Part shown: piece by piece, positions 8,882 through 50,025 of the stretch
How positions within the stretch are numbered: position 1 is the first letter of the stretch
How the letters are laid out: every line of letters begins with the position of its first letter
Source: an uncultured virus (IMG/VR IMGVR_UViG_2811995091_000194)
Taxonomy: Duplodnaviria > Heunggongvirae > Uroviricota > Caudoviricetes
IMG/VR virus record: IMGVR_UViG_2811995091_000194
DNA length: 64,000 bases
Reading direction: 5' to 3' (one strand)
The notes under the pieces: model-generated
Told to the model about the DNA's origin: nothing
Databases searched by the model: none
Seen by the model: the letters and a program-made list of their open reading frames with translations, nothing else
Position numbers and translations under genes: made by a program

Positions 8882-9313
8882 GTGCAATGGACCCCACCAA
8901 CATCTCCATACAATCTAATTCAGGAGCAGCTGCATCATGATCCCTGGAAGATATTTGTTGCCTGTATTTTTTGCAATCTAACTAAAAGAGTTGATGCAGA
9001 GCCATTCATGTGGGAGTTCTTTGAAAGGTACCCAACACCTGATGATGCGTCACATGCAGACACTTCTGAGATAGAGAAAATGATACAACCTCTAGGGTTG
9101 TCCCAGAGACGTTCTAAGGCCCTGGTAAAGATGTCTGATGGCTACCTAAGAGACGACTGGAGGAGCAGCCCAGAGATTCTCTACGGGATCGGAAAGTATG
9201 CAATAGATGCATATCGGATCTTCTGCCTCGGAGAGTGGAGAGATGTGAATCCTAAGGATGGCGCATTAGTGAACTATCACAATTTCTTAAAGAGAATACA
9301 TGGTTTACGCTGA
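8882..9313 (+). CDS. MBD4-like HhH-GPD mismatch DNA glycosylase
   Basis: WTPPTSPYNLIQEQLHHDPWK and LYGIGKYAIDAYRIFC...P.D..L..YH closely match the MBD4 glycosylase domain as recalled. Confidence 0.85.
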   Translation: MQWTPPTSPYNLIQEQLHHDPWKIFVACIFCNLTKRVDAEPFMWEFFERYPTPDDASHADTSEIEKMIQPLGLSQRRSKALVKMSDGYLRDDWRSSPEILYGIGKYAIDAYRIFCLGEWRDVNPKDGALVNYHNFLKRIHGLR

Positions 9314-10645: not shown

Positions 10646-11011
10646 GTGGATAGACTAAAAAAAATGTATGAGCAGCAGAATGCATTCATATCTCTCATGC
10701 AAAAACATAGATCGCATCCAGAAGTACCTCTTGATATCACAGAGAAGAAGTCGCAGCAATTTTTAAGGATGCTGGCATATGAATGTATGGGTGAGCTATT
10801 TGAGTCAAATATTCTTCTTAAAAATAGCAAGTATCATCGGGCAACAGAGGTGACAGAATTTGATCGTGATGCATATGTTGAGGAGCTATGTGATGTGCTA
10901 CATTACTTTTTTGGCATAGTAATATGCTCAGGAATCTCATCTGATGAGCTTTTTGACACATATATGTCAAAGGGCAAGATAAACGTAGAACGTATTCTTG
11001 GCGGTTATTAA
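10646..11011 (+). CDS. All-alpha NTP pyrophosphatase (dimeric dUTPase/dCTPase/MazG-like)
   Basis: ECMGELFE ... KYH ... EELCDVLHYF acidic metal-binding pattern. Confidence 0.8.
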   Translation: MDRLKKMYEQQNAFISLMQKHRSHPEVPLDITEKKSQQFLRMLAYECMGELFESNILLKNSKYHRATEVTEFDRDAYVEELCDVLHYFFGIVICSGISSDELFDTYMSKGKINVERILGGY

Positions 11012-11102: not shown

Positions 11103-12089
11103 ATGAGCAAAGACGACACGAAACAAAGTACGACGTTTCTTAAGATGTTTAGTCGCCAGGATGAGTTTTCATCTTTATTTTTTGACAAAAGTGAGATGAG
11201 CGATCGACAAAAGGAGGAGATGACAAAGTCATTTGCCTTAGCACTGCATGCAGAGGCAACTGGGCTAGCAACATCTGTTAACTTTAAGGATCATCGACTT
11301 GTCAAGCATGATATTGATAAGACTAAGATACTATACAAGTCAGTTGATGCATTTCGATATCTTCTTGCAATGATGAATATGTGGGAGTTTGAGCCTGCTG
11401 ATTTCCTGGGTGCATTTTGGGATAAGGATCTTTACCTACACGCTCGACACAGGATGGAGAAAAATGTCTGGAGTGATCAGCCAGTTCTTCTTGTTGACAT
11501 GGACGACGTGCTAAATGAGTTTAGAGGTTATTTCACGGCGTGGTTAAAGGAGAGAAAAGGTGTCGTCGTTCCTAACGACTCAACAGAGTATTACTCCTCT
11601 AAGGAGGTGAAAGCAGCAGGACTACTTCCAGAGGCAGTATTTCAGGAGTTCATAGAGGAGAGAGAATTACGTCATATCACAAGGAATCATGAGATGATAA
11701 ACATCCTGAATCAACTATATGATGAAGGCTACTGGATTCAGATAATCACAGCCAGACCCAGTGACAACTTGCTTTGCCTTTATGACACATACTACTGGCT
11801 TGAGCATGCCGGACTCAAGTTCCATCACCTTGACTTCTCACCTGAAAAGTTTAGATGGCTTGTCCAGAAGGACTTCTACGATGCTGATGCAGTTGTGTGC
11901 GCAATAGACGACTCAGCCAAGCACGCAAGCGAGTATGCAAAGCATGGGATAAAGGTGATTTCACCTGTGACGTCGTACAATCAGGAGCTTAAAAAAGTTT
12001 CAAATGTTACCATGTACACAGACGAAAGCACGGTATATGATCTAGTGCACAGCTTGACAAAAAAGGAAGACAAAGGTGCCACAGAATAA
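11103..12089 (+). CDS. Degenerate all-alpha NTP-PPase domain fused to a HAD 5'-nucleotidase (NT5C-like)
   Basis: N-term ALHAEATGL...KSVDAFRYL; C-term LVDMDDVL, ITARP, IDDS. Confidence 0.7.
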   Translation: MSKDDTKQSTTFLKMFSRQDEFSSLFFDKSEMSDRQKEEMTKSFALALHAEATGLATSVNFKDHRLVKHDIDKTKILYKSVDAFRYLLAMMNMWEFEPADFLGAFWDKDLYLHARHRMEKNVWSDQPVLLVDMDDVLNEFRGYFTAWLKERKGVVVPNDSTEYYSSKEVKAAGLLPEAVFQEFIEERELRHITRNHEMINILNQLYDEGYWIQIITARPSDNLLCLYDTYYWLEHAGLKFHHLDFSPEKFRWLVQKDFYDADAVVCAIDDSAKHASEYAKHGIKVISPVTSYNQELKKVSNVTMYTDESTVYDLVHSLTKKEDKGATE

Positions 12090-13062
12090 AGATCTTGACC
12101 CCGTAACTTTACCGATGACTTTGAGGTTCAATGAGGACCCAACAACAGAATTTTTAAACGATCTAGATGCACTTCAGATTGAACTGGTTGATCACCCGAC
12201 AGCAGAGCAGATGAGGTCAACTGCATGGAGATATGTCAAGGCAACCTGGGCAGATAGCCCGGAGATGTCCGATCCGGTTAACGTCACACAGCGTGAGCTG
12301 AGTGAGAATCTTGAGGATGTTCTAAACTTTAGGGCATTACCGACGCCGATGGAGATCTTTAGCTTCACATTTAAGTTTGCCGGAATTGACTTGCAAACAG
12401 TAACACATCTTATTAGGCACCGCGCGGGATCATATGCTGCGCAGTGCACGGGAGATAGATTTCTCCATCATGAGCCGTGCCTTGTTCCTTCGTCAGTTGA
12501 AAATAGCCCAGAGATGTATCGGCGCTGGCAGCGTCATGTTGAGGATGCCAAGCAACTATATGCTGACATGGTTGACACGAAGCAGATCTCTATGATGGAT
12601 GCGAGAACCATTCTTCCAAAGTGCTTGTCAACATTCTATTACGGAAGATTTAACCTCAAGGATATCATTGGTTTTGTCAAGCAGAGAGCTGACAAGCAGA
12701 TCCAGCCAGCAGCTGATAATCTTATCGCTGCAAAGATGGCGCTAGAGGTGATCAAGGTGCTACCTGAGGCTAGCACAGTGATTGGGACAAGAACACTAAC
12801 GAGTCCGGCGTGGCATTATGTAAAAAATGTGAGAGCAGGAACTGGGACGAATCTCTACTGGCCTGATACCGACAGCGACGAGCATGTGGAGTATCACCCT
12901 AATGACACAATTTATCAGGCCCGCAGGTATGATCTCAACGGGACAAATCCTCCCGCTGAGGAGTCTGATGGAAATACAGTGTTTAGACAGAAATGGAACG
13001 ACATCTTAGATGAGATCGCAGTTCTTGAGGCTAATTATAACCTTACAGCGGAGACAAAGTGA
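12076..13062 (+). CDS. thyX: Divergent FAD-dependent thymidylate synthase
   Basis: HLIRHRAGSYAAQC (RHRx7S with Ser replaced by Cys), DARTILP, NLKDI...QR. Confidence 0.75.
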   Translation: MPQNKDLDPVTLPMTLRFNEDPTTEFLNDLDALQIELVDHPTAEQMRSTAWRYVKATWADSPEMSDPVNVTQRELSENLEDVLNFRALPTPMEIFSFTFKFAGIDLQTVTHLIRHRAGSYAAQCTGDRFLHHEPCLVPSSVENSPEMYRRWQRHVEDAKQLYADMVDTKQISMMDARTILPKCLSTFYYGRFNLKDIIGFVKQRADKQIQPAADNLIAAKMALEVIKVLPEASTVIGTRTLTSPAWHYVKNVRAGTGTNLYWPDTDSDEHVEYHPNDTIYQARRYDLNGTNPPAEESDGNTVFRQKWNDILDEIAVLEANYNLTAETK

Positions 13063-13502
13063 TGAAAGCGTATATTGCCAGCTCATGGTTTACACCTGTT
13101 GCATTTGAGGAGGTAGAGACGATAAAGACACTGCTAACAAAGCATGGATTTGAGTACTTTTCTCCAAAAGATTTTTTCATCTGTCCGCCAAATGCTGACC
13201 TTGACACACAGCGTGAGACATTTGATGGAAATGTTGAGCATATTTTAGGAAATGACTTTGTGCTATGCAACTCCAGAGATAAAGATGTGGGCAGCATTTT
13301 TGAAGCGGGTGTGGCATATCAATCTGATACGCCCATTGTATACTTTTGTGCAGGACTTCCTGAAGGTGCACCATTTAATCTTATGCTGTCTCAGAGCGGT
13401 ATTAAGGTTTGCACATCATTTGATGAGCTTGATGACTATCTTTCAAGATGTAGTGACAAAGGAGAGCTCATTTTTGAGCCATACTATGGGACGATTGAGT
13501 AA
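13059..13502 (+). CDS. Nucleoside 2-deoxyribosyltransferase / nucleotide N-hydrolase family
   Basis: YIASSWF, FSPK, DVGSIFEAGVAY, NLML. Confidence 0.8.
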   Translation: MMKAYIASSWFTPVAFEEVETIKTLLTKHGFEYFSPKDFFICPPNADLDTQRETFDGNVEHILGNDFVLCNSRDKDVGSIFEAGVAYQSDTPIVYFCAGLPEGAPFNLMLSQSGIKVCTSFDELDDYLSRCSDKGELIFEPYYGTIE

Positions 13503-13674: not shown

Positions 13675-14718
13675 GTGAAAAAGGATTATTATAAAATACT
13701 TGGCGTTGCAAAGGGTGCAAGTGCTGAAGACATAAAGAAGGCATATAGAGGGCTAGCATTAAAGTATCATCCGGATAGAAACAGTGAAGATGACGATGCA
13801 GAAAAGAAGTTCAAGGAAGCAACTGAGGCATATGAAGTTCTTTCAGACAAAGAGAAGAGAAGAGACTATGATGCAGGAGGTCTTCATAATTTTTCATTCT
13901 CAGGAAATCCCAATGATATATTTGATAGTTTTTTCTCTAGGTTCGGCGGCTTTGATGAAGTCTTTGGAAGGCAGACAAGAGAAAGAAGTAGACCTCCATC
14001 GCCTGGCGAAGACCTATATGTAAAAATTGATATTCCTCTTGAATCATCATTTTCAGGTGTGCATAAAAACATTATATTTGAAAGAGGAATTCAGTGTGAT
14101 AAGTGTCTAGGTGAAGGAATTGAAGATAAGGCTGATATATCAAAGTGCAATGAATGCAGCGGATCTGGAAGAGTTCACCACAAAGCATCATTTTTAAATA
14201 TTTCTGTATCGTGTTCACACTGTTCAGGCACAGGAAGCATTATAGAAAAACACTGCTCAGGCTGCGGAGGAACACGTAGAAAGTTTGAAAATAAATCAAT
14301 TAATGTTGAAATCCCGTCGGGTGTAATGTCAGGAGAAACATTAAAGATTTCAAAAATGGGTCATAGTCATCCTATTTCAAATATTCCAGGTGATCTTTTA
14401 ATTAGGATTGATGTCATGCCTCACTCGATGTTTGAGAGGGAGATGAATGATATTCACTGTAAATCACGTGTGTCATATGGTCAGGCTGTCTTAGGCACAA
14501 AGATCGATGTAGCAACACTTCACGGAAGTTCTATTCTTGAAATACCCCCAGGAACACAAAATCGAGATGTATTTTTAATAAAGGGCCTGGGAATGTCTAG
14601 AAGAGATATTGGAACAGGTGATCACTATGTTCATATTGAAGTTGATGTTCCCACTAAGGTAAGTCAAGAAGAGCGTGAATTAATTGAAAAGCTTGAAAAA
14701 ATAAGGCAAAAAAGTTAA
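13675..14718 (+). CDS. dnaJ: Chaperone DnaJ
   Basis: J-domain with HPD, G/F region, four CxxCxGxG-type repeats, C-terminal domain. Confidence 0.95.
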
Positions 14719-14795
14719 ATAAAAGGGTTTCCTTTGGAAAATCCGTGTCTACATTTATTGTAGGAAAATTCCGTTAGATAAAATAGGAGATTTAA

Positions 14796-16667
14796 ATGGG
14801 AAAAGTACTAGGAGTTGATCTCGGCACGACAAACTCGTGTTGTGCAATAATGGAGGGAAGTAATCCTAAAATAATTACAAATGAAGAAGGGGCAAGAACG
14901 ACACCGTCTGTTGTTGCGTTTACAAAGGACAATGAGCGCCTGACAGGAAGTCCAGCTAGAAGACAAGCAGTTGTCAATCCAGGGAATACAGTGTCCTCTA
15001 TTAAGCGATTTATGGGCGCCAGGATGTCAGATTCAGACGTAAAAGATGATATAAAGAATGTGCCCTATACTGTTATAGCCGGAAAGAATGGGTCATGCAA
15101 CATAAAGATAGATGACAAAAAATACACACCGCAGGAGATAAGTGCACAGATTCTTTTAAAGATGAAGCGCGCGGCAGAATCTTATCTTGGATTCGAGATC
15201 AATGAAGCTGTTATAACAGTTCCTGCGTACTTTAATGATGATCAAAGACAGGCAACAAAGGATGCCGGACAAATAGCAGGTCTTGATGTAAAGAGGATAA
15301 TAAACGAACCAACTGCAGCAGCTCTTGCATATGGATTTGACAAGAAGAAAGATCAAAAAATTGCTGTATTTGATCTCGGCGGCGGAACATTTGACATCTC
15401 TATTCTTGATATCGCAGACGGTGTTGTTGAAGTTCTAAGCACAAATGGTGACACAAGGCTGGGAGGTGATGATGTTGATCAGATGCTAACGTCATGGCTA
15501 ATTGAAGAGTTTAAAAATGATACTGGGATAGATGTTAGTGGAGACAAGGCGGTTTTACAGCGACTAAGGGACGCGTCAGAAAAGGCTAAGATAGAACTCT
15601 CTAGTACTCAAAAAACAGAAATAAACCTACCATTCCTTACAGCAGATGCCTCAGGCCCTAAGCACCTTCAATCTGAATTGCTTAGATCAAAATTTGAGCA
15701 GATGATTGAGTCATTTGTTGAAAGAACATTAAAACCTGTACGTCGTGCTTTAAAAGACGCGGCGCTAGATGTTTCTAATATTGATGAGGTAATATTGGTC
15801 GGAGGATCAACGCGGATCCCTGCTGTTAAAAGTGCAGTTGAGAAATTTTTTGATCAGAAGGCAAATAATTCAGTAAACCCAGATGAAGTTGTGGCGCTGG
15901 GTGCAGCAGTGCAAGGGGGCGTATTCTCAGGTGACGTTCATGATGTCTTGCTTTTAGACGTTACACCACTTTCACTAGGAATTGAGACACTGGGCGGTGT
16001 TATGACAAGGCTCATTGATAGAAACTCAACCATACCGTGTTCAAAAAATGAGACGTTTAGTACTGCAGCAGATGGCCAGACGTCTGTTGACATTCATGTT
16101 CTGCAGGGTGAAAGACAGTTTGCAAATCACAATAAGAGTCTTGGGAAATTTAGACTAGACGGAATACCAATAGCACCACGAGGAGTTCCTCAAATTGAAG
16201 TGACATTTGACATAGATGCAAATGGAATTGTAAGCGTTTCTGCGAAGGACACAGCAACGGGAAAAAATCAGTCAATAAGAATAGAGGGAAAGGGGTCACT
16301 ATCAGACGATGATATTAAAGAAATGATAGATGATGCCAAGCAGCACGAGGAAGAGGATACAGCTAGAAGACAGTCTGTTGAAAATAGAAATAAATGTGAT
16401 AGCCTTGTTTATCAGGTTGAAAAAATGACAAAGGAAGCGGAGGGAAGTTTGTCAGACCAGACGATGAACGGTGTAACTGCAGCAATATCTGAAGCCAGAG
16501 ATGCATTATCTGGCACGGATGATAACAGAATACTTAGTGCACTTGAGTCTCTTGAGAAAGCATCACAAGACGCCGGAAGAGAGATGTATGAGAATGCATC
16601 AAGAAATGAAACAAGTGACAGTGAAGATGATGATTTTGCTGAAGCTAGCTTCGAAGAAGCTGATTAA
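14796..16667 (+). CDS. dnaK: Chaperone DnaK (Hsp70)
   Basis: [33 protein letters not shown]. Confidence 0.98.
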
Positions 16668-16736: not shown

Positions 16737-19700
16737 GTGAAAGATAAAAAAAGCAGACTATCAGTACATTTACCTCCGTCTAGATTTGTTGGGCTGCATG
16801 CTCATGATGGTTCAAGCGTATATGACGGACTGGGCTACCCAAATGAGCATATTGATTTTATTCTTGAAAATGGAATGAATTCACTTGCTCTGACAAATCA
16901 TGGACACATGAACTCAGCTGCACATGCTCATAACTACGCAAAGAAGCTAAAGTCAAAAGGGCAGAAATATAGGCACATATATGGGTGTGAGTGTTATTTT
17001 GTTGATGATTTAACAGAGTGGCGCAATGATTATAACGAACATCGTGAAAGAGTTCGTATTGAAAAGGAGTCTAAGCGGAAGATTCGTGCAGACGATAATG
17101 ATGAAAGCGAAGGACTTGTAGTTGAGGATGAGAATGAGACAAAGAAAGACAGTGGTTCATATCCTGAGTGGAAGAGAAGATATCACCTTGTTGTCATAGC
17201 AAAAAACTTTACAGGTCTTCAAAATCTTTTTAGGCTTGTTAAAATGTCATATAAAGAAGGGTTCTATAGATTTCCTAGAATTGACTTTAAAATGCTCAAG
17301 GAAAATTCTGAAGGCTTGATTGTATCGACTGCCTGTGTTGGCGGCCGTGCATCAGGTCACATATTTCAGGAATTTCCAGATAAAAAGTTTGATGAACTCT
17401 CTCCTGGCCTGGTTAGTGATCCTTATGTTCTTAAGTCAGTTATGACAAAACTTGAGAATATGACAGATCGATTTGTTGATTGTGTGGGTAGAGATAACTT
17501 CTTTTTAGAGCTACAATTCAACGATCTTGTAGCACAACATCTTACAAATAGATGCCTAATAGAGCTGTCTAAGAAAACTGGAATTCCTCTTATCTCAACT
17601 GCTGACTCACATTATTGTAGACCTGAGATGTGGGAAGCACGCGAGATGTATAAGATCTTGGGAAGGATGGGATCTCGCGATGATAAGATGCCAAAGCTAC
17701 CTGAGAAGAGTGATTTGAAGTGTGAACTATATCCGAAAAATGCACAACAGATGTGGGATGCATTCAAGGAAGGATACAGCAAATACGACTTTTATGATGG
17801 CTCAGAAGATGATGTAAAAGAATCAATCGAAAGAACACATGACATTGCATGGGATGTGTGTGATGAGGTCTGGTTTGATGATAGTGGGGCAAAGCTTCCA
17901 AACTTTACAACAGATAAGAGGACAGCGTTTGGACAATTGGCTGATCAGGTCAAAGAGGGAATGATAAGATCAGACCTTCATGAGAAGCCTGAATATCTTA
18001 ATAGAGTCAAAGAGGAGCTTTCTGTCATTAAAGAGCTAGGGTTTGAGAACTATTTCTTAACGCTAACAAGAGTATTTGACAAGGCTAAGCATAGAACGCT
18101 AATCGGACCCGGCAGAGGCTCAGGATCAGGTTGCCTTGTTAATTATGTGCTAGGAATAACACATGTCGACCCTATAAAATATGATCTTTTATTTGAGAGA
18201 TTTTTAGGTCTACACAAGATAGCATGGCCCGATATTGACACAGATGTGGGAGATCGAGATGTTTTGATCAATGTGTCAAGAGAGCTTTTTGGAGAAGACT
18301 CAGTAATACCTGTGAGTAATTTCAATACACTTAAGCTAAAGAGCCTTATTAAAGATGTATCAAAGTTTTATGGAATTCCATTTGATGAAGTGAACAGGGT
18401 GACTGGGCCGCTAGAGAGAGAAGTCATGCCACGTGCAATGGGTGATCATGAGGAAAAGTCAACATACATTTTGACACATGAGGATTGCATGAAATATAGC
18501 GAGTCATATCAGCAGTTCATGGAAAAGTACCCAAAGGTTTCTGAGCATGTTCAAACATTGTTCATGGAGATTAGATCGATTGGCAGGCATGCCGGCGGTG
18601 TTCTTGTGTGCCCTAATCTTGAAAACAATATGCCTGTAATTAAGGTAAGAGGAGAGTTGCAAACGCCATGGTCAGAGGGTATGAACTTTAGACACCTAGA
18701 GGAGAATGGATTTTTAAAATTTGACTTCTTAGGGCTAGCTACACTAAAGATGGTTGAGGATACAATTCGCTTGGTCTTAAGAGGGCAAGGTGTTGAAAAT
18801 CCATCGTTTGATCAAATAAATAAATTTTTTGATGAACATCTAAGCAGTAGATATCATGACATGGATGATCAAAAAGTTTGGGAGTATGTGTATCATGATG
18901 GAAGATTTGTACAGATTTTTCAATTTGTAAATCCTGGAGCAAGAAAATTCTGTAAGGATGCAAAGCCAAAATCAATTGAGGAGCTATCAGCAATTACAGC
19001 AATTTATAGACCAGGACCGCTAGCAGCAAATGTAGATAAGAAGTATGTTAAGACAAAACTACTTGTTGAGTCTGGAAAAAAGATAAAGTATGATCATCCT
19101 ATAATTGAAGAGATTCTTGGAGAGACATTCGGCTATACAATCTATCAAGAACAGTTCATGTTACTTGCACAAAAACTAGCCGGATTTAATAAAGGCGAGT
19201 CTGATAAGATGAGAAAGACTCTTGTCAAGAAGTCTCTTGACTCTAATGCTGCGAAGGTACAAGAACGAATTGATCTTAGAAAAAAGTTTGTAGAAGGATC
19301 AGTTAATTTGAGCGGAATGGATAGAGATAAGGCAGAAAAGCTATATGAAACAATAGAATATTTTTCTGGGTATGGCTTCAATCGATCACATAGCATATCA
19401 TATGCTATTGACTCCTATTATGCTGCATGGCTCCATACATATTATGAAAAAGAGTGGCTCGCAGTCTGCCTCCAAACGTGGAATGGTTCTCCAAAGTTTG
19501 GAAAGATCATGGCAGAGATAAAAGCTTTGGGATATAAGATTCTTCCGCCAGATATTAACACGTCATCAGACGTATGGGTCTATAGCAACGATAGATCAGG
19601 ATTTGTTCCTCCTCTTACAGCAATTAAGGGAGTTGGTAAGGCGGCTGTTCAAGAGATAATGATTCGCAGGCCGTTTACATGTATTGACCAGATGCTTTTC

Positions 19701-20345
19701 ACTGATGAAGGTGCATGGAAGCCTTCAAAAATGAATAAAACATGCTTTGACTCTCTTTGTAAGGTCGAGGCATTTGGTTCTCTTAGTGAGATGAAAAATA
19801 AAAAAATTCTGAATCACAGACAGCTTCATGAAGTAATTGTTGGAAACTATGACCTTCTTAAGAAAGGAAGACATGGAATGACAAAGACAGCTGTGAAAAA
19901 AATGATAAAAGAATCCGGTCGTGTCCCAGTGTTTGTTGATGAGAAAATATATGAAAACTATGACTTAGATGACTGGGTAAGATCTGAAAAAATTGCAATG
20001 TGTGTTGATTTAATGGCAGGCGCAGATGAGGATCTAATATTTCCTCCTGTTCTTATGAAAAAGATAGATGAATCAGGTGTCAAGTCTGTTATAAGCATGA
20101 GTGGAAAGGAGAAGGCTATCGCGTGGTTTTGTATCCAGTCTATTGAGGAAAGGACTACAAAAAATGGAAAAGTGTTCTATAGAATGAAAGTCTGTGATAA
20201 TAATTCAGAAAGTGCTTGGCTTCGAGTTTGGACAAAGTTTAATAGTCTTCCCAGCCTGTATACGATATGGCTCGCTGAGGTATCATCAACAGAGTCTTGG
20301 GGTTACTCAACTTCATCCTATAAGATGAAGCAGATTAACGTGTAA
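16737..20345 (+). CDS. dnaE: DNA polymerase III alpha subunit (family C)
   Basis: PHP domain (LHAH...LTNHG), GRGSGSG, PDIDTD, GRHAGG, KFDFLGL, YGFNRSH. Confidence 0.95.
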   Translation: MKDKKSRLSVHLPPSRFVGLHAHDGSSVYDGLGYPNEHIDFILENGMNSLALTNHGHMNSAAHAHNYAKKLKSKGQKYRHIYGCECYFVDDLTEWRNDYNEHRERVRIEKESKRKIRADDNDESEGLVVEDENETKKDSGSYPEWKRRYHLVVIAKNFTGLQNLFRLVKMSYKEGFYRFPRIDFKMLKENSEGLIVSTACVGGRASGHIFQEFPDKKFDELSPGLVSDPYVLKSVMTKLENMTDRFVDCVGRDNFFLELQFNDLVAQHLTNRCLIELSKKTGIPLISTADSHYCRPEMWEAREMYKILGRMGSRDDKMPKLPEKSDLKCELYPKNAQQMWDAFKEGYSKYDFYDGSEDDVKESIERTHDIAWDVCDEVWFDDSGAKLPNFTTDKRTAFGQLADQVKEGMIRSDLHEKPEYLNRVKEELSVIKELGFENYFLTLTRVFDKAKHRTLIGPGRGSGSGCLVNYVLGITHVDPIKYDLLFERFLGLHKIAWPDIDTDVGDRDVLINVSRELFGEDSVIPVSNFNTLKLKSLIKDVSKFYGIPFDEVNRVTGPLEREVMPRAMGDHEEKSTYILTHEDCMKYSESYQQFMEKYPKVSEHVQTLFMEIRSIGRHAGGVLVCPNLENNMPVIKVRGELQTPWSEGMNFRHLEENGFLKFDFLGLATLKMVEDTIRLVLRGQGVENPSFDQINKFFDEHLSSRYHDMDDQKVWEYVYHDGRFVQIFQFVNPGARKFCKDAKPKSIEELSAITAIYRPGPLAANVDKKYVKTKLLVESGKKIKYDHPIIEEILGETFGYTIYQEQFMLLAQKLAGFNKGESDKMRKTLVKKSLDSNAAKVQERIDLRKKFVEGSVNLSGMDRDKAEKLYETIEYFSGYGFNRSHSISYAIDSYYAAWLHTYYEKEWLAVCLQTWNGSPKFGKIMAEIKALGYKILPPDINTSSDVWVYSNDRSGFVPPLTAIKGVGKAAVQEIMIRRPFTCIDQMLFTDEGAWKPSKMNKTCFDSLCKVEAFGSLSEMKNKKILNHRQLHEVIVGNYDLLKKGRHGMTKTAVKKMIKESGRVPVFVDEKIYENYDLDDWVRSEKIAMCVDLMAGADEDLIFPPVLMKKIDESGVKSVISMSGKEKAIAWFCIQSIEERTTKNGKVFYRMKVCDNNSESAWLRVWTKFNSLPSLYTIWLAEVSSTESWGYSTSSYKMKQINV

Positions 20346-20349
20346 TACT

Positions 20350-21261
20350 ATGTTACTATTTCCAGCACGTACAGTATTTGTAGAAGGTCCAGATTGTTCA
20401 GGAAAAACGTCATTAATAAGAGAAGTTCATAAGAAGACAGGCTATAGGTGGCACCTTATGGACAGGTCACAGCTATCAAGAAAGATATTTTCAGAGATGT
20501 ACGGAAGATCTATCGAGCACATAGACGATCATCTTCATAACGAATTATTCAACTTAAATAACAAGTATGTCATTATTGACTTGCCGTTTAAAACTATTAA
20601 GAGTAGATTTGAAAAAAGAGGAGACGATCTTCACGATTTAAGCTCAATAAGAAGAGTACACAAGCTGTTTATGCAAGAATTTAAAAATTTGCAAGATCAC
20701 CCAAATGTAATAAGGATAACTTGCAACAAGTCGTCAATCAGCGATATAGCAGATAGCGTTATAGCATCATTAATGATGCAAGAGGGTGCACAAATAAAAG
20801 AAATAGCAGATTCTGTCATAGATGCTGTAGCACAATCAGAAAATCATGAAGTTTTCCCGCTTCAAGTAACACTATATGATGATGGAGAATTTGAAGAAGC
20901 AACACACAGCATTCTAGAATTTGAGCCAGAGTCAGAGTATTATATAAAGATACTTCTAGCCTTTCTTAATAAAATAGATGCAGAGATGAAAGGTAAAAAT
21001 GAATATTCAAGAAAAGAGAGTATTTTCTCTAGAAGGTTTGTATACACAGATGATTCGTGTATATCGTTTATTCAAGCCAGCCAGCGAAACAGTATAATGG
21101 ATTTTCACTGTGTGATAAGATCATGTAATGTAAGAGAGTTATTTGAACATGATTTAAGATTTATTTACTATCTTGCATCAGAGTGCTGGAAAAGAATAGG
21201 CGGCGGTTGTACATCTGCAAGAATTAGAGTGAATTTAAACTCTGCACATATAATTGAGTAA
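20350..21261 (+). CDS. dNMP kinase fused to a minimal thymidylate-synthase/dCMP-hydroxymethylase-like domain
   Basis: EGPDCSGKTS and DRS kinase motifs; C-term SRR..SC..Q..RSCN...D...NSAH. Confidence 0.7.
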   Translation: MLLFPARTVFVEGPDCSGKTSLIREVHKKTGYRWHLMDRSQLSRKIFSEMYGRSIEHIDDHLHNELFNLNNKYVIIDLPFKTIKSRFEKRGDDLHDLSSIRRVHKLFMQEFKNLQDHPNVIRITCNKSSISDIADSVIASLMMQEGAQIKEIADSVIDAVAQSENHEVFPLQVTLYDDGEFEEATHSILEFEPESEYYIKILLAFLNKIDAEMKGKNEYSRKESIFSRRFVYTDDSCISFIQASQRNSIMDFHCVIRSCNVRELFEHDLRFIYYLASECWKRIGGGCTSARIRVNLNSAHIIE

Positions 21262-21283
21262 AATTAAAGAGAATGGAGAAAAA

Positions 21284-22288
21284 ATGAAAAGAGCATTAGT
21301 CACAGGAGGCTGTGGGTTCATTGGGTCAAATTTGGCCAAGAGGCTAGTAGGAGAAGGATGGAAGGTTGATATAGTTGATGACATGTCAAATGGTCATCTT
21401 GAATTGCTTGATGGAGTGAGCATGCGGGTCGTTCCTGCAGACTTGTTACAAAATTTCTATAGTACAGTTTCAAGTAGAGATGACGATACTATTCTTGTGA
21501 TACAGGGAGATTTCTCTCATGGCGCAATTGTTAAAAATATATCTGATGGCATGTATGATGTCGTATTTCATCAGGCAGCAATTCCAAGAGTTTCATTTTC
21601 TGTTGAAAATCCATCAATGACGACAGATATAAATATAGCCGGGACAGTTAGGTTGTTCGAGGCATGTACTGGAAATGTTAATCGAATTGTCTGGGCATCA
21701 TCATCATCTGTCTATGGCGGCGCTGAGGTTCTGCCAACAAATGAAGAGACTGTAAAAGCACCTAAGTCACCGTATGCCTGGCAAAAAAGTGCAATAGAGG
21801 ATGTAGCAAAACTATTTGGTGAGTTATACAGCCTTGACATAGTGTGTCTAAGATACTTTAATGTGTTTGGGCCTGGACAGCATGGTGATTCACCTTACTC
21901 AACAGCAATATCTGCGTGGTGTCATGCAGTAAAAAATGGGTTACCACTAAGAAGCGACGGCGACGGAAGTCAGTCAAGAGATATGTGCTATGTTGACAAC
22001 GCTGTTGATGCGAATTTGCTAGCTGCAACATCTGATGAAAAGTTTTTTGGAAGGGTGTATAATGTATCATGCGGAGACAAAACGACCAATAGAGAGATTC
22101 TTGATCATTTCACAGAAAAATTTTCTCATGCTGTTGTTAGACATGCACCTTGGCGTCCAGGTGATGTAATGCATACATGTGCTGATATTACACGCATAAG
22201 TTCTGAGCTAGGATATGAGCCTCGTGTTAGATTTTGGGATGGCTTAAGGAAGACTTTGGCCTGGTGGGGAATAGAAGAATATGAATAA
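21284..22288 (+). CDS. NAD-dependent nucleotide-sugar epimerase/dehydratase (WbpP/GalE-like)
   Basis: VTGGCGFIG, HQAA, ASSSSVYG, YAWQK, LRYFNVFGP. Confidence 0.92.
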   Translation: MKRALVTGGCGFIGSNLAKRLVGEGWKVDIVDDMSNGHLELLDGVSMRVVPADLLQNFYSTVSSRDDDTILVIQGDFSHGAIVKNISDGMYDVVFHQAAIPRVSFSVENPSMTTDINIAGTVRLFEACTGNVNRIVWASSSSVYGGAEVLPTNEETVKAPKSPYAWQKSAIEDVAKLFGELYSLDIVCLRYFNVFGPGQHGDSPYSTAISAWCHAVKNGLPLRSDGDGSQSRDMCYVDNAVDANLLAATSDEKFFGRVYNVSCGDKTTNREILDHFTEKFSHAVVRHAPWRPGDVMHTCADITRISSELGYEPRVRFWDGLRKTLAWWGIEEYE

Positions 22289-22676
22289 GTGCTCATGGAA
22301 AGGAAAAAGCTCAAAAACTGAAAAGCCCTGGGGGCATGAAACTGTGTGGAGCGCTCTTCCAGGAGTTCACGGAAAAATTTTATTTATCAAGGCTGGAAAC
22401 AAGACAAGCTTAAAATATAACAATGCTAAGGATGAGATTCTTTATATCCTTAGCGGAAAAGTTCTAATACAGTACGGAGATCAATCAACGTTAGTGGAAA
22501 ATAGTGAAAATTCATATAGGTTTTCTGAATTTACACCTGGGGGTGTATTGCATATACAATCATGCAGCCCGTATAGAATTACAGCTATTGAGGATAGCGA
22601 AATTATTGAAATAGGAAACAATAAGAAAAGCACATGCACAAGAATAGATGATGACTATGGGAGAGCGTGTAAATGA
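22281..22676 (+). CDS. Cupin, mannose-6-phosphate-isomerase-like
   Basis: KPWGHE...TSLKY...KDE...R..DDYGR; the usual His ligands appear substituted. Confidence 0.7.
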   Translation: MNKCSWKGKSSKTEKPWGHETVWSALPGVHGKILFIKAGNKTSLKYNNAKDEILYILSGKVLIQYGDQSTLVENSENSYRFSEFTPGGVLHIQSCSPYRITAIEDSEIIEIGNNKKSTCTRIDDDYGRACK

Positions 22677-23233
22677 GATCCCCAGAGTTTATAATATTTA
22701 CAGGACCAATGTTTGGATCAAAGACGACAAGACTTCTTGGCACAGTTGATAGATTTAGATATCAGAATAAAACTGTTCTATCATTTAAGCCAAAGCTTGA
22801 TGATAGATATTCAAGCGGAGATATTACAACACATAATGGTGGTAAACTAAGGGCAATAATAGTTGAAAACGGCAGCGAAGTAATTGATCATGTGATAGAT
22901 TCAGGTGAATCAGTTGGCGTTGTTGCTGTTGATGAGGCATTTATGATTGATGATATCGCTGAAGCACTGATATATCTTTTTAGAAAAGGAAAGACTATTG
23001 TTGTTTCATCATTGCAGCTTTCTGCTACGGGAAAGGTATTCGAAGAGATTCGTGATATTATGCCCTGGGCAACTAAGATTGAGATATGTCCTGCAGTGTG
23101 CCCTATTACAGGAAGAGATGCATATTATACACACAGAAAGAGTGACTGCATTGATGAAATAACTGTTGGCGGTTCTGATTTATACGAGCCTCGCTGTTGG
23201 GAATATCATAGCTTTATGAATAATCAGGATTAA
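22673..23233 (+). CDS. tdk: Thymidine kinase
   Basis: GPMFGSKT, VDEA, VGG..YEPRC. Confidence 0.92.
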   Translation: MRSPEFIIFTGPMFGSKTTRLLGTVDRFRYQNKTVLSFKPKLDDRYSSGDITTHNGGKLRAIIVENGSEVIDHVIDSGESVGVVAVDEAFMIDDIAEALIYLFRKGKTIVVSSLQLSATGKVFEEIRDIMPWATKIEICPAVCPITGRDAYYTHRKSDCIDEITVGGSDLYEPRCWEYHSFMNNQD

Positions 23234-24464: not shown

Positions 24465-24890
24465 ATGAGCTATAGACCAGAGTGGGATCAGATCTGGATG
24501 GAATTTGCGCATAGTATTGCAAGAAGGTCAGTTGATCCGAGGCATAAGGTTGGAGCAATTGTTGTCACATCAGACAATACTCAAGTGCTAGCCATAGGCT
24601 ATAACGGCGATCAAAGAGGCGGCCCAAACGAGGTCGAGTCATTGACACCGGGTGAGTCTGGAATGCTACATGCAGAAATTAATGCTCTGCTTAAGATGGA
24701 CTATAACAACCCAAAAGATAAGATCATGTATGTTACTTTAAGTCCGTGTCGAATGTGCTGCAAGGCGCTCGTCAATGCCGGGATAAAGCAAGTGATATAT
24801 GATGAAGATTATCGCGACACGTCAGGGATAGACCTCCTGGATGACAGTGATATTATTGTTAAAAAACTATCTAGCATTTCTCATATTTAA
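24465..24890 (+). CDS. dCMP deaminase (ComEB-like)
   Basis: KVGA, GYNG, HAEINA, SPCRMC. Confidence 0.92.
   Translation: MSYRPEWDQIWMEFAHSIARRSVDPRHKVGAIVVTSDNTQVLAIGYNGDQRGGPNEVESLTPGESGMLHAEINALLKMDYNNPKDKIMYVTLSPCRMCCKALVNAGIKQVIYDEDYRDTSGIDLLDDSDIIVKKLSSISHI
24883..24889 (+). promoter_or_regulatory. Putative late-promoter motif ATATTTA
   Basis: Upstream of structural gene 24935. Confidence 0.5.
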
Positions 24891-26182: not shown

Positions 26183-26479
26183 TTGCAATGCCGGACGGAG
26201 ATAGTGTTGAAAACATACACAAAAAGTGATATTGAAAATATTATCAACGAGATAGGGTTACGCGTTAGTGAGCGCTTAGACCTGTTTATTGGAACCGGTG
26301 ATAATGAAAGATTAGTTGTTAGATCTGGGCTTAAGATAAGGCATAAAGAAACAGGAATTGTCTACACAGTTGTTTATATTGACGTGTCTGATAGGTCTAA
26401 TCCTAAAATAATATGCAATAGGCCCGGAATAACAATGGAAATACAGAAAGAAGAATTTAAAAATTATGAGAGGCAATAA
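26183..26479 (+). CDS. Hypothetical protein; start uncertain
   Basis: ORF after ATATTTA at 26173. Confidence 0.55.
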   Translation: MQCRTEIVLKTYTKSDIENIINEIGLRVSERLDLFIGTGDNERLVVRSGLKIRHKETGIVYTVVYIDVSDRSNPKIICNRPGITMEIQKEEFKNYERQ

Positions 26480-27186
26480 TGTCAAGTTTTACAAATAGTG
26501 ACCTAAAGAAGAACATACAAGAATCACTTGGTCTAACTGATCATGATAACGAGAATGAACTTCTTAAAGAGGCGTATGCTACACAGCCAAAGCATCATGA
26601 TCTTCCAACAGAGCTACTTAGCATGGCGAATAAAAAGAGTCATGTAGAGCTATATAAGGGATATGTTGAAAAGTTTAATAGAGTAAGTGCTGAGCTAGAC
26701 GGAGTCAATCGAGCAGAGGCAGATTCTAATTATTCTAAGTTTAGATCTCTAAAGCTTGATGAGGCCCATAACATGAATGCAGTGTATCTTCATGAGCTTT
26801 ATTTTTCAAATATCAGCGATCTTCATAGCAATATATCAATGGACTCATTATCATATATGAGGCTTTCTAGAGACTTTGGTACATTTGATGATTGGCAGAA
26901 TGATTTCATTGCGTGTTGCCTGTCATCTCGCTGTGGCTGGGCAGTAACTGTGTATAGCACATATCTACAAAGATACATAAACTGTGTTGTTGATCTTCAC
27001 AGTGCACAGGTACCAATGGGAACATATCCTGTCATAGTGATGGATATGTGGCAACACTCATATTATCGTGATTATTTAACAGATGTAAGAACATATGTTC
27101 ATGCAATGATGAAGCAGTTAAATTGGACAGTAATTGAAGATAGAATTAACAGAGCAGAAAAAATACAACATGCTCTAAGGACATGA
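26479..27186 (+). CDS. Fe/Mn superoxide dismutase family protein with an N-terminal extension
   Basis: H..LY.GYV, LHELYF, FG.FD.W, GW, DMWQHSYY.DY. Confidence 0.85.
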   Translation: MSSFTNSDLKKNIQESLGLTDHDNENELLKEAYATQPKHHDLPTELLSMANKKSHVELYKGYVEKFNRVSAELDGVNRAEADSNYSKFRSLKLDEAHNMNAVYLHELYFSNISDLHSNISMDSLSYMRLSRDFGTFDDWQNDFIACCLSSRCGWAVTVYSTYLQRYINCVVDLHSAQVPMGTYPVIVMDMWQHSYYRDYLTDVRTYVHAMMKQLNWTVIEDRINRAEKIQHALRT

Positions 27187-31491: not shown

Positions 31492-31902
31492 ATGAAAACT
31501 CTTTTAGATTTAATTGAAAATAAGAAGTTTATAGAGTGCAGGGGAGATCGTCAGAGCACATCTAGAATAATTGAGTCAGCTGTTGGAATGCCGTCCATGA
31601 CAGTTCCAATTACAGCAGCTACGTCAACGTGGCAAATATTGAGTGATCCTGAAAGGCTTGTTAAGAATTTTCAGTTTAGTGATATTGAAAGTGTAAGATA
31701 TTTTATTAATGAGCTATTAAGTGAGCAAAAAAGAATTCATCATGATGTAACGATGACTGTTAGCAGTCTTTCAGTTACGATTGAAACATTTACACATGAT
31801 GTGAACAGTGTAACATCTCAGGACAAAAGAATTTCACAGTTTTGTGATGAGATATATGAAGATACAAAGCATTTTAATTTGAAAAGAAATGACCAATATT
31901 AA
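31492..31902 (+). CDS. Pterin-4a-carbinolamine dehydratase-like protein
   Basis: W...L.K.F.F...F...HH..V...THD...T..D pattern. Confidence 0.65.
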   Translation: MKTLLDLIENKKFIECRGDRQSTSRIIESAVGMPSMTVPITAATSTWQILSDPERLVKNFQFSDIESVRYFINELLSEQKRIHHDVTMTVSSLSVTIETFTHDVNSVTSQDKRISQFCDEIYEDTKHFNLKRNDQY

Positions 31903-41875: not shown

Positions 41876-43787
<1,912 letters not shown>

Positions 43788-44870: not shown

Positions 44871-45632
44871 ATGTCACAGTCACTTGATTCATACTTTAAA
44901 GATGTTTCAAATACTAAACTTCTAACAAGAGAGGAAGAGGTAATTCTCTCACAAAGAATTGAAAGAGGAGATGCGACAGCAAGAAATATCATGATCGAGT
45001 CAAATCTTCGTCTCGCAATCAGCATAGCAAAAAAATATTATAAAAGCGGTTGTGATATGGAAGACCTTATCCAAGAGTCTAACATTGGACTAATGAAAGC
45101 CGTTGAAAAGTTTGACTGGAGAAGAGGGTTCAAATTTAGTACATACGCGTGCTGGTGGATAAAGCAGTCTGTATGTCGTCACATTAGTACAAATAGAAAT
45201 ACTGTAAAGGTTCCTGCTCACACTGCATCTCTAGCGTATAAAGTAAGAACAATAATTCAGGAATATGAGAAAGATCTTGGGCAAAAGCCAAGCATTCCAG
45301 AAATTTCTGAGCTTCTTGGTGTGACAGAAAATATGGTGAAGGCCAGCCTTGAATCGATAAAATTTCAAAACATGTTGTCAATTGATGGAACAATTGGAAA
45401 TGAAGAAGGTGGCAGATCAATTATTGAAGTGATAGCTGATAGCAACAATATAGACATTGACGGAATTCTTGACAAGGAAAAAATTATGATAATGATTAAG
45501 TCATGTCTGTCAAGGCTCTCTCAGAGAGAGGAGCAAATTTTGAGGCTTAGATTTGGAATATCTGATAATTTTGAACATACAGATGCATTCGACGTCACTG
45601 AAGATGACATCGCTGATATAGTAAAAGGATAA
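44871..45632 (+). CDS. Sigma70-family RNA polymerase sigma factor lacking the region 4.2 recognition helix
   Basis: LLTREEE, NLRLAISIAKKY, DLIQE.NIGLMKAVEKFD...FKFSTYA.WWI; ends soon after REEQILRLRFGI. Confidence 0.9.
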   Translation: MSQSLDSYFKDVSNTKLLTREEEVILSQRIERGDATARNIMIESNLRLAISIAKKYYKSGCDMEDLIQESNIGLMKAVEKFDWRRGFKFSTYACWWIKQSVCRHISTNRNTVKVPAHTASLAYKVRTIIQEYEKDLGQKPSIPEISELLGVTENMVKASLESIKFQNMLSIDGTIGNEEGGRSIIEVIADSNNIDIDGILDKEKIMIMIKSCLSRLSQREEQILRLRFGISDNFEHTDAFDVTEDDIADIVKG

Positions 45633-46983: not shown

Positions 46984-47238
46984 GTGGAAAATCCGACGCT
47001 ATTAACAGAAAATATATGGCTAGATACAGAGACAGACGTTGTCGTTGTTTCATTTGATCGAGTATCAGTTGCATTTCCAGTTGAAGAATTCTTAAGCTTC
47101 TGTGATGAAATTTTTGATGCACGTGATTCACTTTTAAAAAATGATAATTACATTATTAGTGAAATAGTAGACGGTGATAACGCGACGCGGATGCTTTCAA
47201 GGAAGCACAGCGTAGAAGATGATGAATATGACAACTAG
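46984..47238 (+). CDS. Hypothetical protein
   Basis: GAGG RBS, GTG start. Confidence 0.55.
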   Translation: MENPTLLTENIWLDTETDVVVVSFDRVSVAFPVEEFLSFCDEIFDARDSLLKNDNYIISEIVDGDNATRMLSRKHSVEDDEYDN

Positions 47239-47701
47239 AGATAAAAGATCAACAGAAATTTTTATATGGCCCGCAGACATTTTAAGCGATGTATCTAAGA
47301 CAGTTACGTCAATAGATGGCAATATAACATTATTAATAGACAGTATGATAAATGCTATGAGAGATTCTAAGTCGTTAAGCATTTCAGCTCCGCAAGTAGG
47401 AGCCCTAGAAAGAGTCATTGTTGTAGATAACAAGAAATTAAAGAGTAGAATTATTTCTGAATCTGAGCCGGTCGCTTTAATAAACCCGGAGATAACAAGC
47501 TGGTTTGGAGAAATATCTATTGATGAGGGATGCTCATCATTGCCGGGACAGTTTAAAATAATGCCTAGGGCATCTCATATAACAGTAAGATATCAAACTG
47601 TTGATGGAGTTTTAACAGAGAATGATGCAGACGGTATTACGGCTGTTATGATACAGCATGAAATAGACCATCTCGACGGAAAGCTAATAATTGATATTTA
47701 G
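47219..47701 (+). CDS. def: Peptide deformylase
   Basis: SAPQVG, INPEI, EGCSS, QHEIDHLDG. Confidence 0.88.
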   Translation: MMNMTTRDKRSTEIFIWPADILSDVSKTVTSIDGNITLLIDSMINAMRDSKSLSISAPQVGALERVIVVDNKKLKSRIISESEPVALINPEITSWFGEISIDEGCSSLPGQFKIMPRASHITVRYQTVDGVLTENDADGITAVMIQHEIDHLDGKLIIDI

Positions 47702-49580: not shown

Positions 49581-50025
49581 GGACACAATTGCAGTAAGCG
49601 GCGGATTTGATCCTGTTCATGTGGGTCACGTGAGAATGATCATAGATGCATCAAAGCACGGAGATGTAATAGTGATTCTTAATAGTGATACGTGGCTAAG
49701 GAATAAGAAGGGATATGTTTTTATGCCATGGAATGAGAGGGCAGAAATATTAGAATCTATCAAGGGTGTTGTCAAGGTTATTCCAGTAGATGATGGCGAT
49801 AGAACGGTTTGTGACGCACTTAACTCACTAAAAGAGTCTGTTGATTTGACATACTTTGCAAACGGCGGAGACAGAATAAATACAAATACACCTGAAATTA
49901 GCATATGTAATAAGCTAGGGATAGAGCTATTGTGGAATATTGGAGGCAAGAAAATTCAAAGTAGCAGTTCACTTGTCAACGATCATAAAGGAATGAAGCA
50001 CAGCACAGAAGGAAATAGGTCATGA
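49564..50025 (+). CDS. Cytidylyltransferase-family nucleotidyltransferase (TagD/RfaE-like)
   Basis: SGGFDPVHVGH, NSD, ER.EI, FANGGDR, QSSS. Confidence 0.88.
   Translation: MGKKCRDTIAVSGGFDPVHVGHVRMIIDASKHGDVIVILNSDTWLRNKKGYVFMPWNERAEILESIKGVVKVIPVDDGDRTVCDALNSLKESVDLTYFANGGDRINTNTPEISICNKLGIELLWNIGGKKIQSSSSLVNDHKGMKHSTEGNRS

Follow-up and report, generated by a model that had tools for sequence, protein, structure and literature searches.

A thymidylate-kinase-like domain fused to a minimal thymidylate-synthase-fold domain in uncultured marine T4-like phages, a candidate cytosine-modifying enzyme

Introduction

Does a phage protein in which a nucleotide kinase is joined to a shortened thymidylate synthase (TS) domain make a modified cytosine nucleotide? 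The question is raised by a gene in a 64,000-nucleotide stretch of DNA from an uncultured virus (IMG/VR record IMGVR_UViG_2811995091_000194), hereafter called the window, which encodes a fusion of a thymidylate-kinase-like domain and a minimal TS-fold domain (mini-TS). TS-superfamily enzymes start nearly all known pre-replicative pyrimidine modifications in phages, including the formation of 5-hydroxymethylcytosine, 5-hydroxymethyluracil, 5-methylcytosine and, since 2025-26, 5-hydroxycytosine. From comparisons of protein sequences across the family and of predicted structures, we lean towards the reading that the fusion would be a catalytic enzyme that modifies deoxycytidine monophosphate (dCMP) at C5 and is coupled to its own kinase.

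The genes of the window lie on one strand, with a strong GC skew and a GC content of 34-43%. A 284-kb relative (G001; CheckV completeness 100%) encodes a T4-type capsid, portal, baseplate and gp32 together with the same deoxynucleotide gene block; therefore, the window is assigned to an uncultured jumbo myovirus of the T4-like type that has a DnaE replicase. All four public sequencing runs that contain at least half of the stretch are marine metagenomes (contigs), and none of the seven public runs listed in all as carrying the stretch is an RNA run.

Results and Discussion

A kinase domain and a minimal thymidylate synthase fold in one polypeptide

The fusion gene starts 4 nt past the end of a gene for a DnaE-like polymerase, and its 3' end shares 8 nt with the gene of an NAD-dependent sugar epimerase (21254..22288). 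The initial annotation had described a P-loop kinase followed by a region with TS motifs directly after dnaE, and all of the motifs that it quoted were recovered in the translation (21028-21249). Residue conservation was scored over 75 sequences, comprising the window protein and its counterparts in 74 of 78 IMG/VR loci (identity 29-100%); the remaining four loci were left out, having no open reading frame (ORF) that joins the cluster. The gene, its two domains and the motifs of the kinase are as follows:

20350..21261, + strand, two-domain fusion of a kinase and a minimal TS fold, 303 amino acids (aa), from the ORF list
20350..20784, + strand, thymidylate-kinase-like (YorR-like) P-loop kinase domain, residues 1-145
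20386..20409, + strand, P-loop G13-P-D15-C-S-G18-K19-T20 (GPDCSGKT, residues 13-20), with E12, G13, D15, G18 and K19 in 75/75
20461..20469, + strand, kinase motif D38-R39-S40, with D38 and R39 in 75/75 and S40 in 71/75
20605..20625, + strand, Arg-rich lid R86-x3-R90-G91-D92, with R86, G91 and D92 in 75/75 and R90 in 74/75
20785..21258, + strand, minimal TS-fold domain, residues 146-303 (158 residues)

The AlphaFold2 (AF2) model of the full-length fusion has a predicted local distance difference test score (pLDDT) of 95.6 and a predicted template modelling score (pTM) of 0.91, and the model of the C-terminal domain alone has a pLDDT of 96.8. With the latter as a query, the top Foldseek match was the dCMP hydroxylase AfhB of phage HY126 (9iqu, 3.3e-8), followed by a riboflavin-dependent dCMP monooxygenase (9iqc, 3.8e-7) and then by E. 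coli ThyA (~5e-6) and MilA; the highest VIA Z, 11.1 over 145 aligned residues, belongs to an AfhB-type dCMP hydroxylase. A profile of the domain, for which near-duplicates were dropped to leave 68 of the 75 sequences, retrieved only dCMP-type TS homologues from the PDB sequences at E<=10. The best of them was the T4 dCMP hydroxymethylase gp42 (T4 dCH; 1b49) at 6.5e-4, with its Cys148, Arg168/Ser169 and Asp179 aligned, and the AfhB type followed at 0.034. Lower scores were obtained in this search for the T4 entries 6l18 (titled D179N) and 6a9a, which have Asn opposite the invariant Asp of the profile. Finally, hhalign of the family alignment against a TS alignment (E. coli ThyA, RB69 gp48 and six phage TS homologues) gave a probability of 96.2% and an E-value of 2.5e-9 over 81 columns, covering ThyA 120-211. 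Foldseek, the PDB profile search and hhalign agree with the earlier expectation of a C-terminal fold comparable with ThyA and gp42. The predicted model of the C-terminal domain shows a TS fold, and sequence profiles, by which the homology is detectable, assign the domain to the TS superfamily.

The N-terminal domain of the fusion protein has a kinase fold with the P-loop, the DR(S/Y) motif and an Arg-rich lid, which aligns with 'RLRVRGDE' of YorR. It matches PHROG 761 'thymidylate kinase' at 7.7e-13, and the family profile retrieves YorR from the B. subtilis phage SPbeta at 1.9e-6. Pfam searches with the window protein yielded only weak AAA/kinase matches and no PF02223 match at E<=1, and its TIGR00041 score of 20.3 bits is below the cut-off of 83.25. 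Among ten distant fused members, eight match PF02223 at E<=0.01, including four above the cut-off (29.8-41.4 bits), and two split kinases from the loci L111 and L112 (see below) also pass it, with 31.1 and 36.9 bits, respectively. We read the N-terminal domain as a predicted active deoxynucleoside monophosphate (dNMP) kinase of the thymidylate-kinase lineage. YorR (2axp/3kb2) and the PF02223 thymidylate kinases differ from the fusion in being single-domain proteins.

Conservation of the active site

The hhalign register places the active-site residues of the mini-TS opposite their counterparts in ThyA as follows:

21028..21036, + strand, S227-R228-R229, opposite ThyA S125-R126-R127, with R228 in 74/75 and R229 in 73/75
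21058..21060, + strand, C237, opposite the nucleophiles Cys146 of ThyA and Cys148 of T4 dCH and aligned also to the AfhB Cys, in 73/75
within 21118..21153, + strand, R257-S258-C259-N260, opposite ThyA R166-S167-C168-D169, with R257 and S258 in 73/75
end of 21118..21153 (R257-SCNVRELFEH-D268), + strand, D268 at the position of ThyA N177, in 75/75
21238..21249, + strand, N297-S298-A299-H300, with H300 opposite ThyA H207; S298 in 74/75 and H300 in 73/75

In the same register, the acidic residue D234 stands opposite ThyA L143, at a position that is Asp in 38/75 of the family and otherwise Ser, Gly, Gln, Asn, Glu or His, and I256 stands opposite ThyA Q165. S236 precedes C237, and Q242 is also present in the translation. 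Outside the listed motifs, R246 is invariant (75/75), as are E194 and Y198, also when stand-alone forms of the domain are included, and E167, E212 and Y219 are conserved. D268 is likewise invariant in a 17-row alignment that includes the stand-alone forms. The manual register of the initial annotation, with Asn at position 169 and Asp at position 177, is right by hhalign, far beyond chance.

Arginines of the ThyA R126/R127 type bind phosphate and come from the partner subunit in TS dimers. The retention of this Arg pair suggests that the mini-TS forms a dimer of the TS type. For T4 dCH, the available portions of PMC6400193 describe Cys148 as the nucleophile and Asp179 as the residue that recognises and protonates cytosine, with Arg123'/124' contributed by the other protomer. 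Because an Asp is invariant at the position of T4 dCH Asp179, the substrate of the mini-TS is probably a cytosine nucleotide. Position 169 (N260 in the window protein) is occupied by Asn in 35/75, Asp in 31/75 and Glu in 9/75 sequences, and this restriction to three residues throughout the family indicates a position that is still functional.

Loss of folate-binding elements

The mini-TS stops three residues past the His207 equivalent, whereas ThyA runs on for 57, and ThyA 212-264 has no counterpart. A further 11 residues are deleted relative to ThyA 132-142, i.e. before the Cys, and only 76 residues precede the SRR motif, compared with 119 in ThyA (~45 fewer). The mini-TS is the smallest TS core encountered in this analysis.

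The roles of residues that contact the p-aminobenzoate (PABA) and pterin parts of folate in the T4 enzyme were taken from the accessible sections of PMC6400193. At the position of ThyA L172/T4 F174 the window protein has E263, and the family is variable and polar (N16/D15/K15/E13); the position of ThyA Tyr209/T4 Tyr218 is I302 in the window protein and Ile, Leu or Val across the family; and the equivalent of T4 Arg220 would fall past the end of the mini-TS. The set of folate-binding elements formed by Asp169/Asp171, the hydrophobic PABA site, Tyr209/Tyr218 and the C-terminal segment is thus not present in the window protein. The suspicion voiced earlier that much of the folate-binding region is missing or changed is borne out by hhalign and by the conservation pattern.

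Distribution of the family and coupling of the kinase to the mini-TS

An exhaustive hidden Markov model (HMM) search of 1.84 billion representatives found 382 proteins at E<=1e-3, of which 160 also pass <=1e-10 and 77 reach <=1e-30. The family is virus-only, and almost all of these proteins are fusions with the kinase. Complete members among these matches are nearly all ~300 aa long, with the mini-TS at the C-terminus. Homologues of the fusion protein with ~300 aa numbered 139 among 793 candidates. By tblastn, no homologue was found at 1e-3 in 50,697 records of cultured phages, and BFVD holds no close fused homologue. The sole full-length homologue in 185,579 GTDB species genomes (29% identity) lies on a 26-kb contig (L102, PBHZ01000014.1) of a metagenome-assembled genome (MAG) labelled as a Methanobacteriota archaeon; this is probably a phage contig binned into an archaeal MAG, and no host is inferred from it.

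The mini-TS apparently also exists on its own, in sixteen proteins of 164-228 aa. They keep the E, Y, R, C, S, R, RS, D and H residues, and none of them matches PF00303 at E<=0.01. In the loci L111 and L112, which encode PolB and not DnaE, a thymidylate kinase (TMPK)-like gene is directly followed by a stand-alone mini-TS gene. The gene order in both is a short PF00303 TS-like gene, a ThyX-like gene, an unknown gene, NT5C, the kinase and the mini-TS, with a dCMP deaminase gene directly next in L111. Because these unrelated loci encode the kinase and the mini-TS as adjoining separate genes, the two proteins are likely to work together, and this arrangement, split and from an unrelated lineage, is the strongest support for their functional coupling. 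The operon has the appearance of a compact module for pyrimidine modification. It contains three genes of thymidylate-synthase type (L111:2198-7046, L112:2045-6474), and the ThyX-like proteins encoded there have 326-350 aa.

Comparison with known systems

The available text of PMC13326640 (2026) reports that 5-hydroxy-dCMP is made by RB69 gp48, DLP3 gp80 and nine more TS homologues, in which flavin and O2 replace folate, and which carry N177D, L143E/D and the diagnostic D169N substitution. According to the same text, the synthase is paired with a dedicated dNMP kinase (gp159 in RB69), and co-expression of the cognate kinase led to far more 5-hydroxydeoxycytidine (5hodC) in cellular DNA, the synthase alone giving a trace. 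AfhB (9iqu/9iqc), RB69 gp48 and DLP3 gp80 resemble the mini-TS in the TS fold, the Cys nucleophile, the RS motif and Asp177, and the mini-TS is also paired with a kinase. The window protein itself has all three published features, namely Asn and Asp at positions 169 and 177, respectively, and the acidic D234 in place of L143. With the AfhB/RB69 gp48 type it further has in common a short C-terminus and 'SAH', a motif that occurs also in homologues from Acinetobacter and Rhizobium phages. Unlike that type, the mini-TS family has Ser, Thr or Cys and not Gln at position 168, its kinase is TMPK/YorR-like and either fused or encoded directly upstream, and no arabinose/glycosyltransferase cluster lies beside it.

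With T4, the host phage lineage shares the structural genes and the logic of gp42, gp1 and gp56, by which one genome combines a kinase and a pyrophosphatase of the MazG/dUTPase_2 type with a TS homologue that modifies dCMP. Unlike gp42, the mini-TS has neither the C-terminal part nor the contacts to folate (PABA/pterin), and the T4 enzymes are separate proteins. By analogy, the fusion would parallel the gp42+gp1 pair of T4 and the gp48+gp159 pair of RB69 in a single polypeptide. E. coli ThyA has the same fold and core register (120-211), with equivalents of Cys146, Arg126/127, Arg166, Ser167 and His207, but differs in Asn177 (Asp in the mini-TS), in Tyr209 (Ile in the window protein) and in being detectable by PF00303. 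The CMP hydroxymethylase MilA of mildiomycin biosynthesis (5b6e/5jnh) is a more distinct case: it has 318 aa, depends on folate, acts on a ribonucleotide, belongs to bacterial secondary metabolism and has no kinase.

Literature searches turned up no publication on a kinase-TS fusion, either of the minimal or of a larger form, and the accessible part of PMC8670742 makes no mention of kinase, fused, fusion or truncated. The same two-domain idea appears in the ESM Atlas as viral fusions of thymidylate kinase and TS (~437 aa, Uroviricota), a database lead only, with possible counterparts of 400-446 aa in BFVD; the TS part of these uncharacterised proteins is full-size and Pfam-detectable.

Proposed reaction and alternative explanations

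Taken as a whole, the observations are best explained by a bifunctional enzyme that would form a C5-modified dCMP and then phosphorylate it, a reading to which we give slightly more credence than to its contrary. In the proposed sequence of steps, the mini-TS would act as a TS-type dimer in which the phosphate of dCMP is held by R228'/R229', R257 and S258, and the invariant D268 would contact N3/N4 of the cytosine. Attack of Cys237 on C6 would render C5 nucleophilic, so that C5 gains a substituent. The N-terminal kinase domain would then turn the modified dCMP into the diphosphate, and a host nucleoside-diphosphate kinase would complete the triphosphate for the DnaE-type replicase encoded just upstream, leading to incorporation of the modified nucleotide into phage DNA. 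Channelling of the modified nucleotide to the phage polymerase, as envisaged in the initial annotation, may accompany these steps.

As to the substituent, 5-hydroxy-dCMP or another product of folate-free chemistry is favoured, because the C-terminus and the contacts for folate are gone and the nearest structures are dCMP 5-hydroxylases that use flavin and O2. Flavin-type 5-hydroxylation ranks first among the chemistries considered; that the product is specifically 5-hydroxy-dCMP is nevertheless a tentative proposal, and a doubtful one when set beside C5 modification in general.

Several observations weigh against a modifying enzyme of this kind. Asn169, the published diagnostic of 5-hydroxy-dCMP synthases, fails to define the mini-TS family, since Asn, Asp and Glu switch repeatedly on the tree. 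The residue flips even between near sisters, such as the window protein (Asn) and its homologue in L004 (Asp) at 73% identity, and Asn169 as a family-wide signature was dropped after the residue had been mapped on the tree. With its 158 aa, the mini-TS falls 60-80 residues short of the solved dCMP hydroxylases (217-238 aa), and the window protein has no match to PF00303 even at E<=1. Relaxed and global hhalign of the N-terminal half gave two incompatible zero-confidence registers, in which equivalents of Glu58 and Tyr94 could not be placed. Two deep-branching members, in L070 and L076, are devoid of the Cys (replaced by Asn) and of the Arg166, Ser167 and His207 equivalents. Asp177, R246 and all of the kinase motifs are kept in both (L070:9986-10870 and L076:9986-10876, on contigs of 239 and 211 kb), and their TS domain looks degenerate but retained. 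Since these proteins have lost the TS catalytic residues and kept the kinase motifs, the kinase is predicted to serve some function independent of TS catalysis. The separate PF00303 TS-like gene of L111 and L112 has Asp at 177, and given this second TS homologue of the Asp177 type, the mini-TS need not be the primary base modifier there, as far as sequence tells. Pfam and PHROG scans of the 64-kb window revealed no DNA glycosyltransferase. As to novelty, the pairing of a kinase with a TS homologue is already known from T4 and RB69, and a cluster of larger fusions of a kinase and a full TS exists in the databases, so that the novelty suggested in the initial annotation is weakened and the fusion varies an arrangement already known.

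A smaller, folate-dependent version of the T4 gp42-type dCMP hydroxymethylase or methylase ranks second, though we regard it as unlikely. Methylenetetrahydrofolate (CH2-THF) would stack on dCMP, and the resulting 5-hydroxymethyl- or 5-methyl-dCMP would be passed to a kinase acting like T4 gp1. Such an enzyme would agree with T4 dCH being the top PDB sequence-profile match and with Asp or Glu, as in folate enzymes, at position 169 in 40/75 sequences; it would also find its surroundings in a conserved pterin-4a-carbinolamine dehydratase gene of the same genomes and in the ThyX-like gene, which implies use of CH2-THF by these phages. In T4 dCH, moreover, the pterin is positioned chiefly by the substrate, according to the available portions of PMC6400193. 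It is hard to reconcile with the absent C-terminal segment, with the replacement of T4 F174 by variable polar residues and of Y218 by Ile, Leu or Val, with the location of R220 past the end of the domain, and with Asn at 169 in the window protein itself; the lobe that holds Tyr56/Trp82/Ile81 in T4 is unalignable, and a Glu60 equivalent is unplaceable. A non-modifying domain is somewhat less probable still. In that case the TS-like part would be an accessory that binds dCMP or dNMP, a regulatory element or a module for assembly of a complex like the dNTP-synthesis complex of T4, and the kinase fused to it would be a general dNMP (dTMP) kinase of the phage. The kinase motifs present in 75/75 sequences, together with L070 and L076, where the domain persists without its TS catalytic residues, would suit this role, as would the loss of the cofactor-binding parts, the location of the gene within a dTTP-supply block (ThyX-like, thymidine kinase, dCMP deaminase) and the separate PF00303 TS-like gene in L111 and L112. 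However, in 73-75 of 75 sequences, with identities as low as 29%, and likewise in the 16 stand-alone mini-TS proteins, the counterparts of Cys, Ser, both Arg pairs, Asp177 and His207 are conserved, as would be expected of a working active site and not of a scaffold.

The site may also have kept covalent catalysis of the TS type while using no bound folate or flavin, or a new electrophile, e.g. in Cys-assisted hydrolytic deamination, C5 exchange or transfer of a substituent from the kinase domain or another protein by which the open active site is completed. We hold this to be the least probable of the explanations considered. The missing cofactor lobe and C-terminus invite it, the full-length pTM suggests a fixed packing of the two domains, and position 169, being only Asn, Asp or Glu, would still contact something. 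A cofactor site acting in trans is hinted at by an ESM Atlas lead, and a lead only, in which bacterial TS-like domains are fused to a pterin-binding domain. On the other side, no precedent was found in the TS superfamily, and the window already has a gene for a zinc dCMP deaminase, 3 kb downstream. A TS catalytic core without a cofactor lobe of its own might rely on a novel electrophile or cofactor, or its site might be completed by the attached kinase, yielding an undescribed cytosine modification; this outcome we consider improbable, although not to the same degree. The companion proposition, that a widespread marine lineage of T4-like jumbo phages with DnaE replicases would carry that undescribed modification, is likewise an outside chance.

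The mini-TS family is invisible to the Pfam TS model and hard-wired to its kinase, and by its presence a large lineage of uncultured marine phages becomes a candidate for carrying modified cytosine. Should the modification be real, it would bias the representation of these phages in metagenomes and affect the evasion of restriction and CRISPR in the ocean. The mini-TS would then be the smallest TS core capable of covalent pyrimidine chemistry, with a bearing on the switch from folate to flavin in the superfamily.

Genomic context

The neighbouring genes of the window that are relevant to nucleotide metabolism or conserved beside the fusion are listed below:

8882..9313, + strand, HhH-GPD glycosylase, 143 aa (2.5e-6)
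10646..11011, + strand, dUTPase_2/MazG-like nucleotide pyrophosphohydrolase, called dCTPase-like earlier (PF08761 1.9e-5; phrog_12184 3.4e-12)
12076..13062, + strand, divergent ThyX-like protein, 328 aa (PF02511 (Thy1) 1.7e-17, 64.3 bits; PDB ThyX 0.0064)
16737..20345, + strand, DnaE-like DNA polymerase III alpha, 1202 aa (~30% identity to phage DnaE), immediately upstream of the fusion in 39/75
21254..22288, + strand, NAD-dependent nucleotide-sugar epimerase/dehydratase (PF01370 1.9e-47), immediately downstream of the fusion in 42/75
22673..23233, + strand, thymidine kinase (PF00265 3e-33)
24465..24890, + strand, dCMP deaminase (PF00383 1.4e-23)

Counted over 79 sources (78 loci and the window), DnaE is present in 79, the fusion in 75, the epimerase in 65, thymidine kinase in 64, a superoxide dismutase (SOD)-like protein in 61 and dCMP deaminase in 60. 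This neighbourhood is lineage-wide synteny and provides no independent functional evidence. Canonical PF00303 TS genes are absent from the contigs of five relatives, one of which is rated 100% complete, and besides the mini-TS fusion these genomes encode no TS-fold protein. The initial annotation had assigned the dTMP supply to ThyX, Tdk and dCMP deaminase; the three genes are present, with the qualification that the ThyX is divergent (64 bits). In G001, a divergent ThyX-like gene lies in the nucleotide block (L088:6692-7657, - strand), and a canonical ThyX of 254 aa (173 bits) is encoded elsewhere (L100:976-1737, - strand). The divergent copy may not be a dTMP synthase.

The remaining parts of the 'whole modified-C system' outlined earlier have superfamily-level matches that support it weakly, and the window adds no glycosyltransferase to them. 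The 'MBD4-like' gene belongs to the HhH-GPD superfamily, with MBD4 specifically unsupported, and the 'dCTPase-like' gene matches dUTPase_2/MazG at the superfamily level. Base-excision glycosylases are encoded by phages that possibly carry modified cytosine, namely the HhH-GPD protein in the window and, near the nucleotide block of relatives, an Fpg/Nei-type glycosylase (L088:9694-10581 in G001; L054:9-749).

The best NCBIfam match of the epimerase is a TviC-like UDP-sugar C4-epimerase (2.3e-52, under its cut-off). An epimerase/cupin pair was considered as a DNA sugar-donor pathway and rejected: its adjacency is lineage synteny, and it is absent beside the split pair of L111 and L112. A glycan-biosynthesis island of G001 at ~125-150 kb (L093:5313 to L094:10016), ~110 kb away, contains two GT1, two GT2, GT4, GT6 and GT11 glycosyltransferases, GDP-mannose 4,6-dehydratase, epimerases, a carbamoyltransferase, a radical-SAM protein, aldolases and a PfkB kinase.

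A homologue of pterin-4a-carbinolamine dehydratase is encoded at 31492-31902 (+ strand) of the window, for example also at L017:20292-20693 and L087:10899-11249, and within 10 kb of the fusion in 25 loci plus the window; it may bear on the cofactor question. A 235-aa protein at 26479-27186 (+ strand), found near the fusion in 61/79 loci, has the C-terminal domain of Fe/Mn superoxide dismutase (3.9e-17) and a marginal N-terminal one.

Adjoining the dUTPase_2/MazG-like gene, a 328-aa protein (11103-12089, + strand) has an NT5C (5'-deoxynucleotidase) domain in residues 127-302 only. The two genes share one similarity cluster (cluster 14) across the loci, which suggests that some relatives fuse them. 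Next to the ThyX-like gene, a member of the nucleoside 2-deoxyribosyltransferase family (13059-13502, + strand; PF05014 1.5e-10) occurs in 47/79 loci. The PF05014 family also includes dNMP/CMP N-glycosidases. A role as a MilB-like CMP glycosidase found no support, the only PDB sequence match being an N-deoxyribosyltransferase (6.9e-5).

The window also carries a gene of the inosine monophosphate dehydrogenase (IMPDH)/GMP-reductase family (PF00478). Genes for DnaJ and DnaK (Hsp70) lie between the nucleotide genes and DnaE (13675-16667, + strand), and the phage further encodes GroEL (42171-43787), sigma-70 (44871-45632), peptide deformylase (47219-47701) and GreA (50022-50495).

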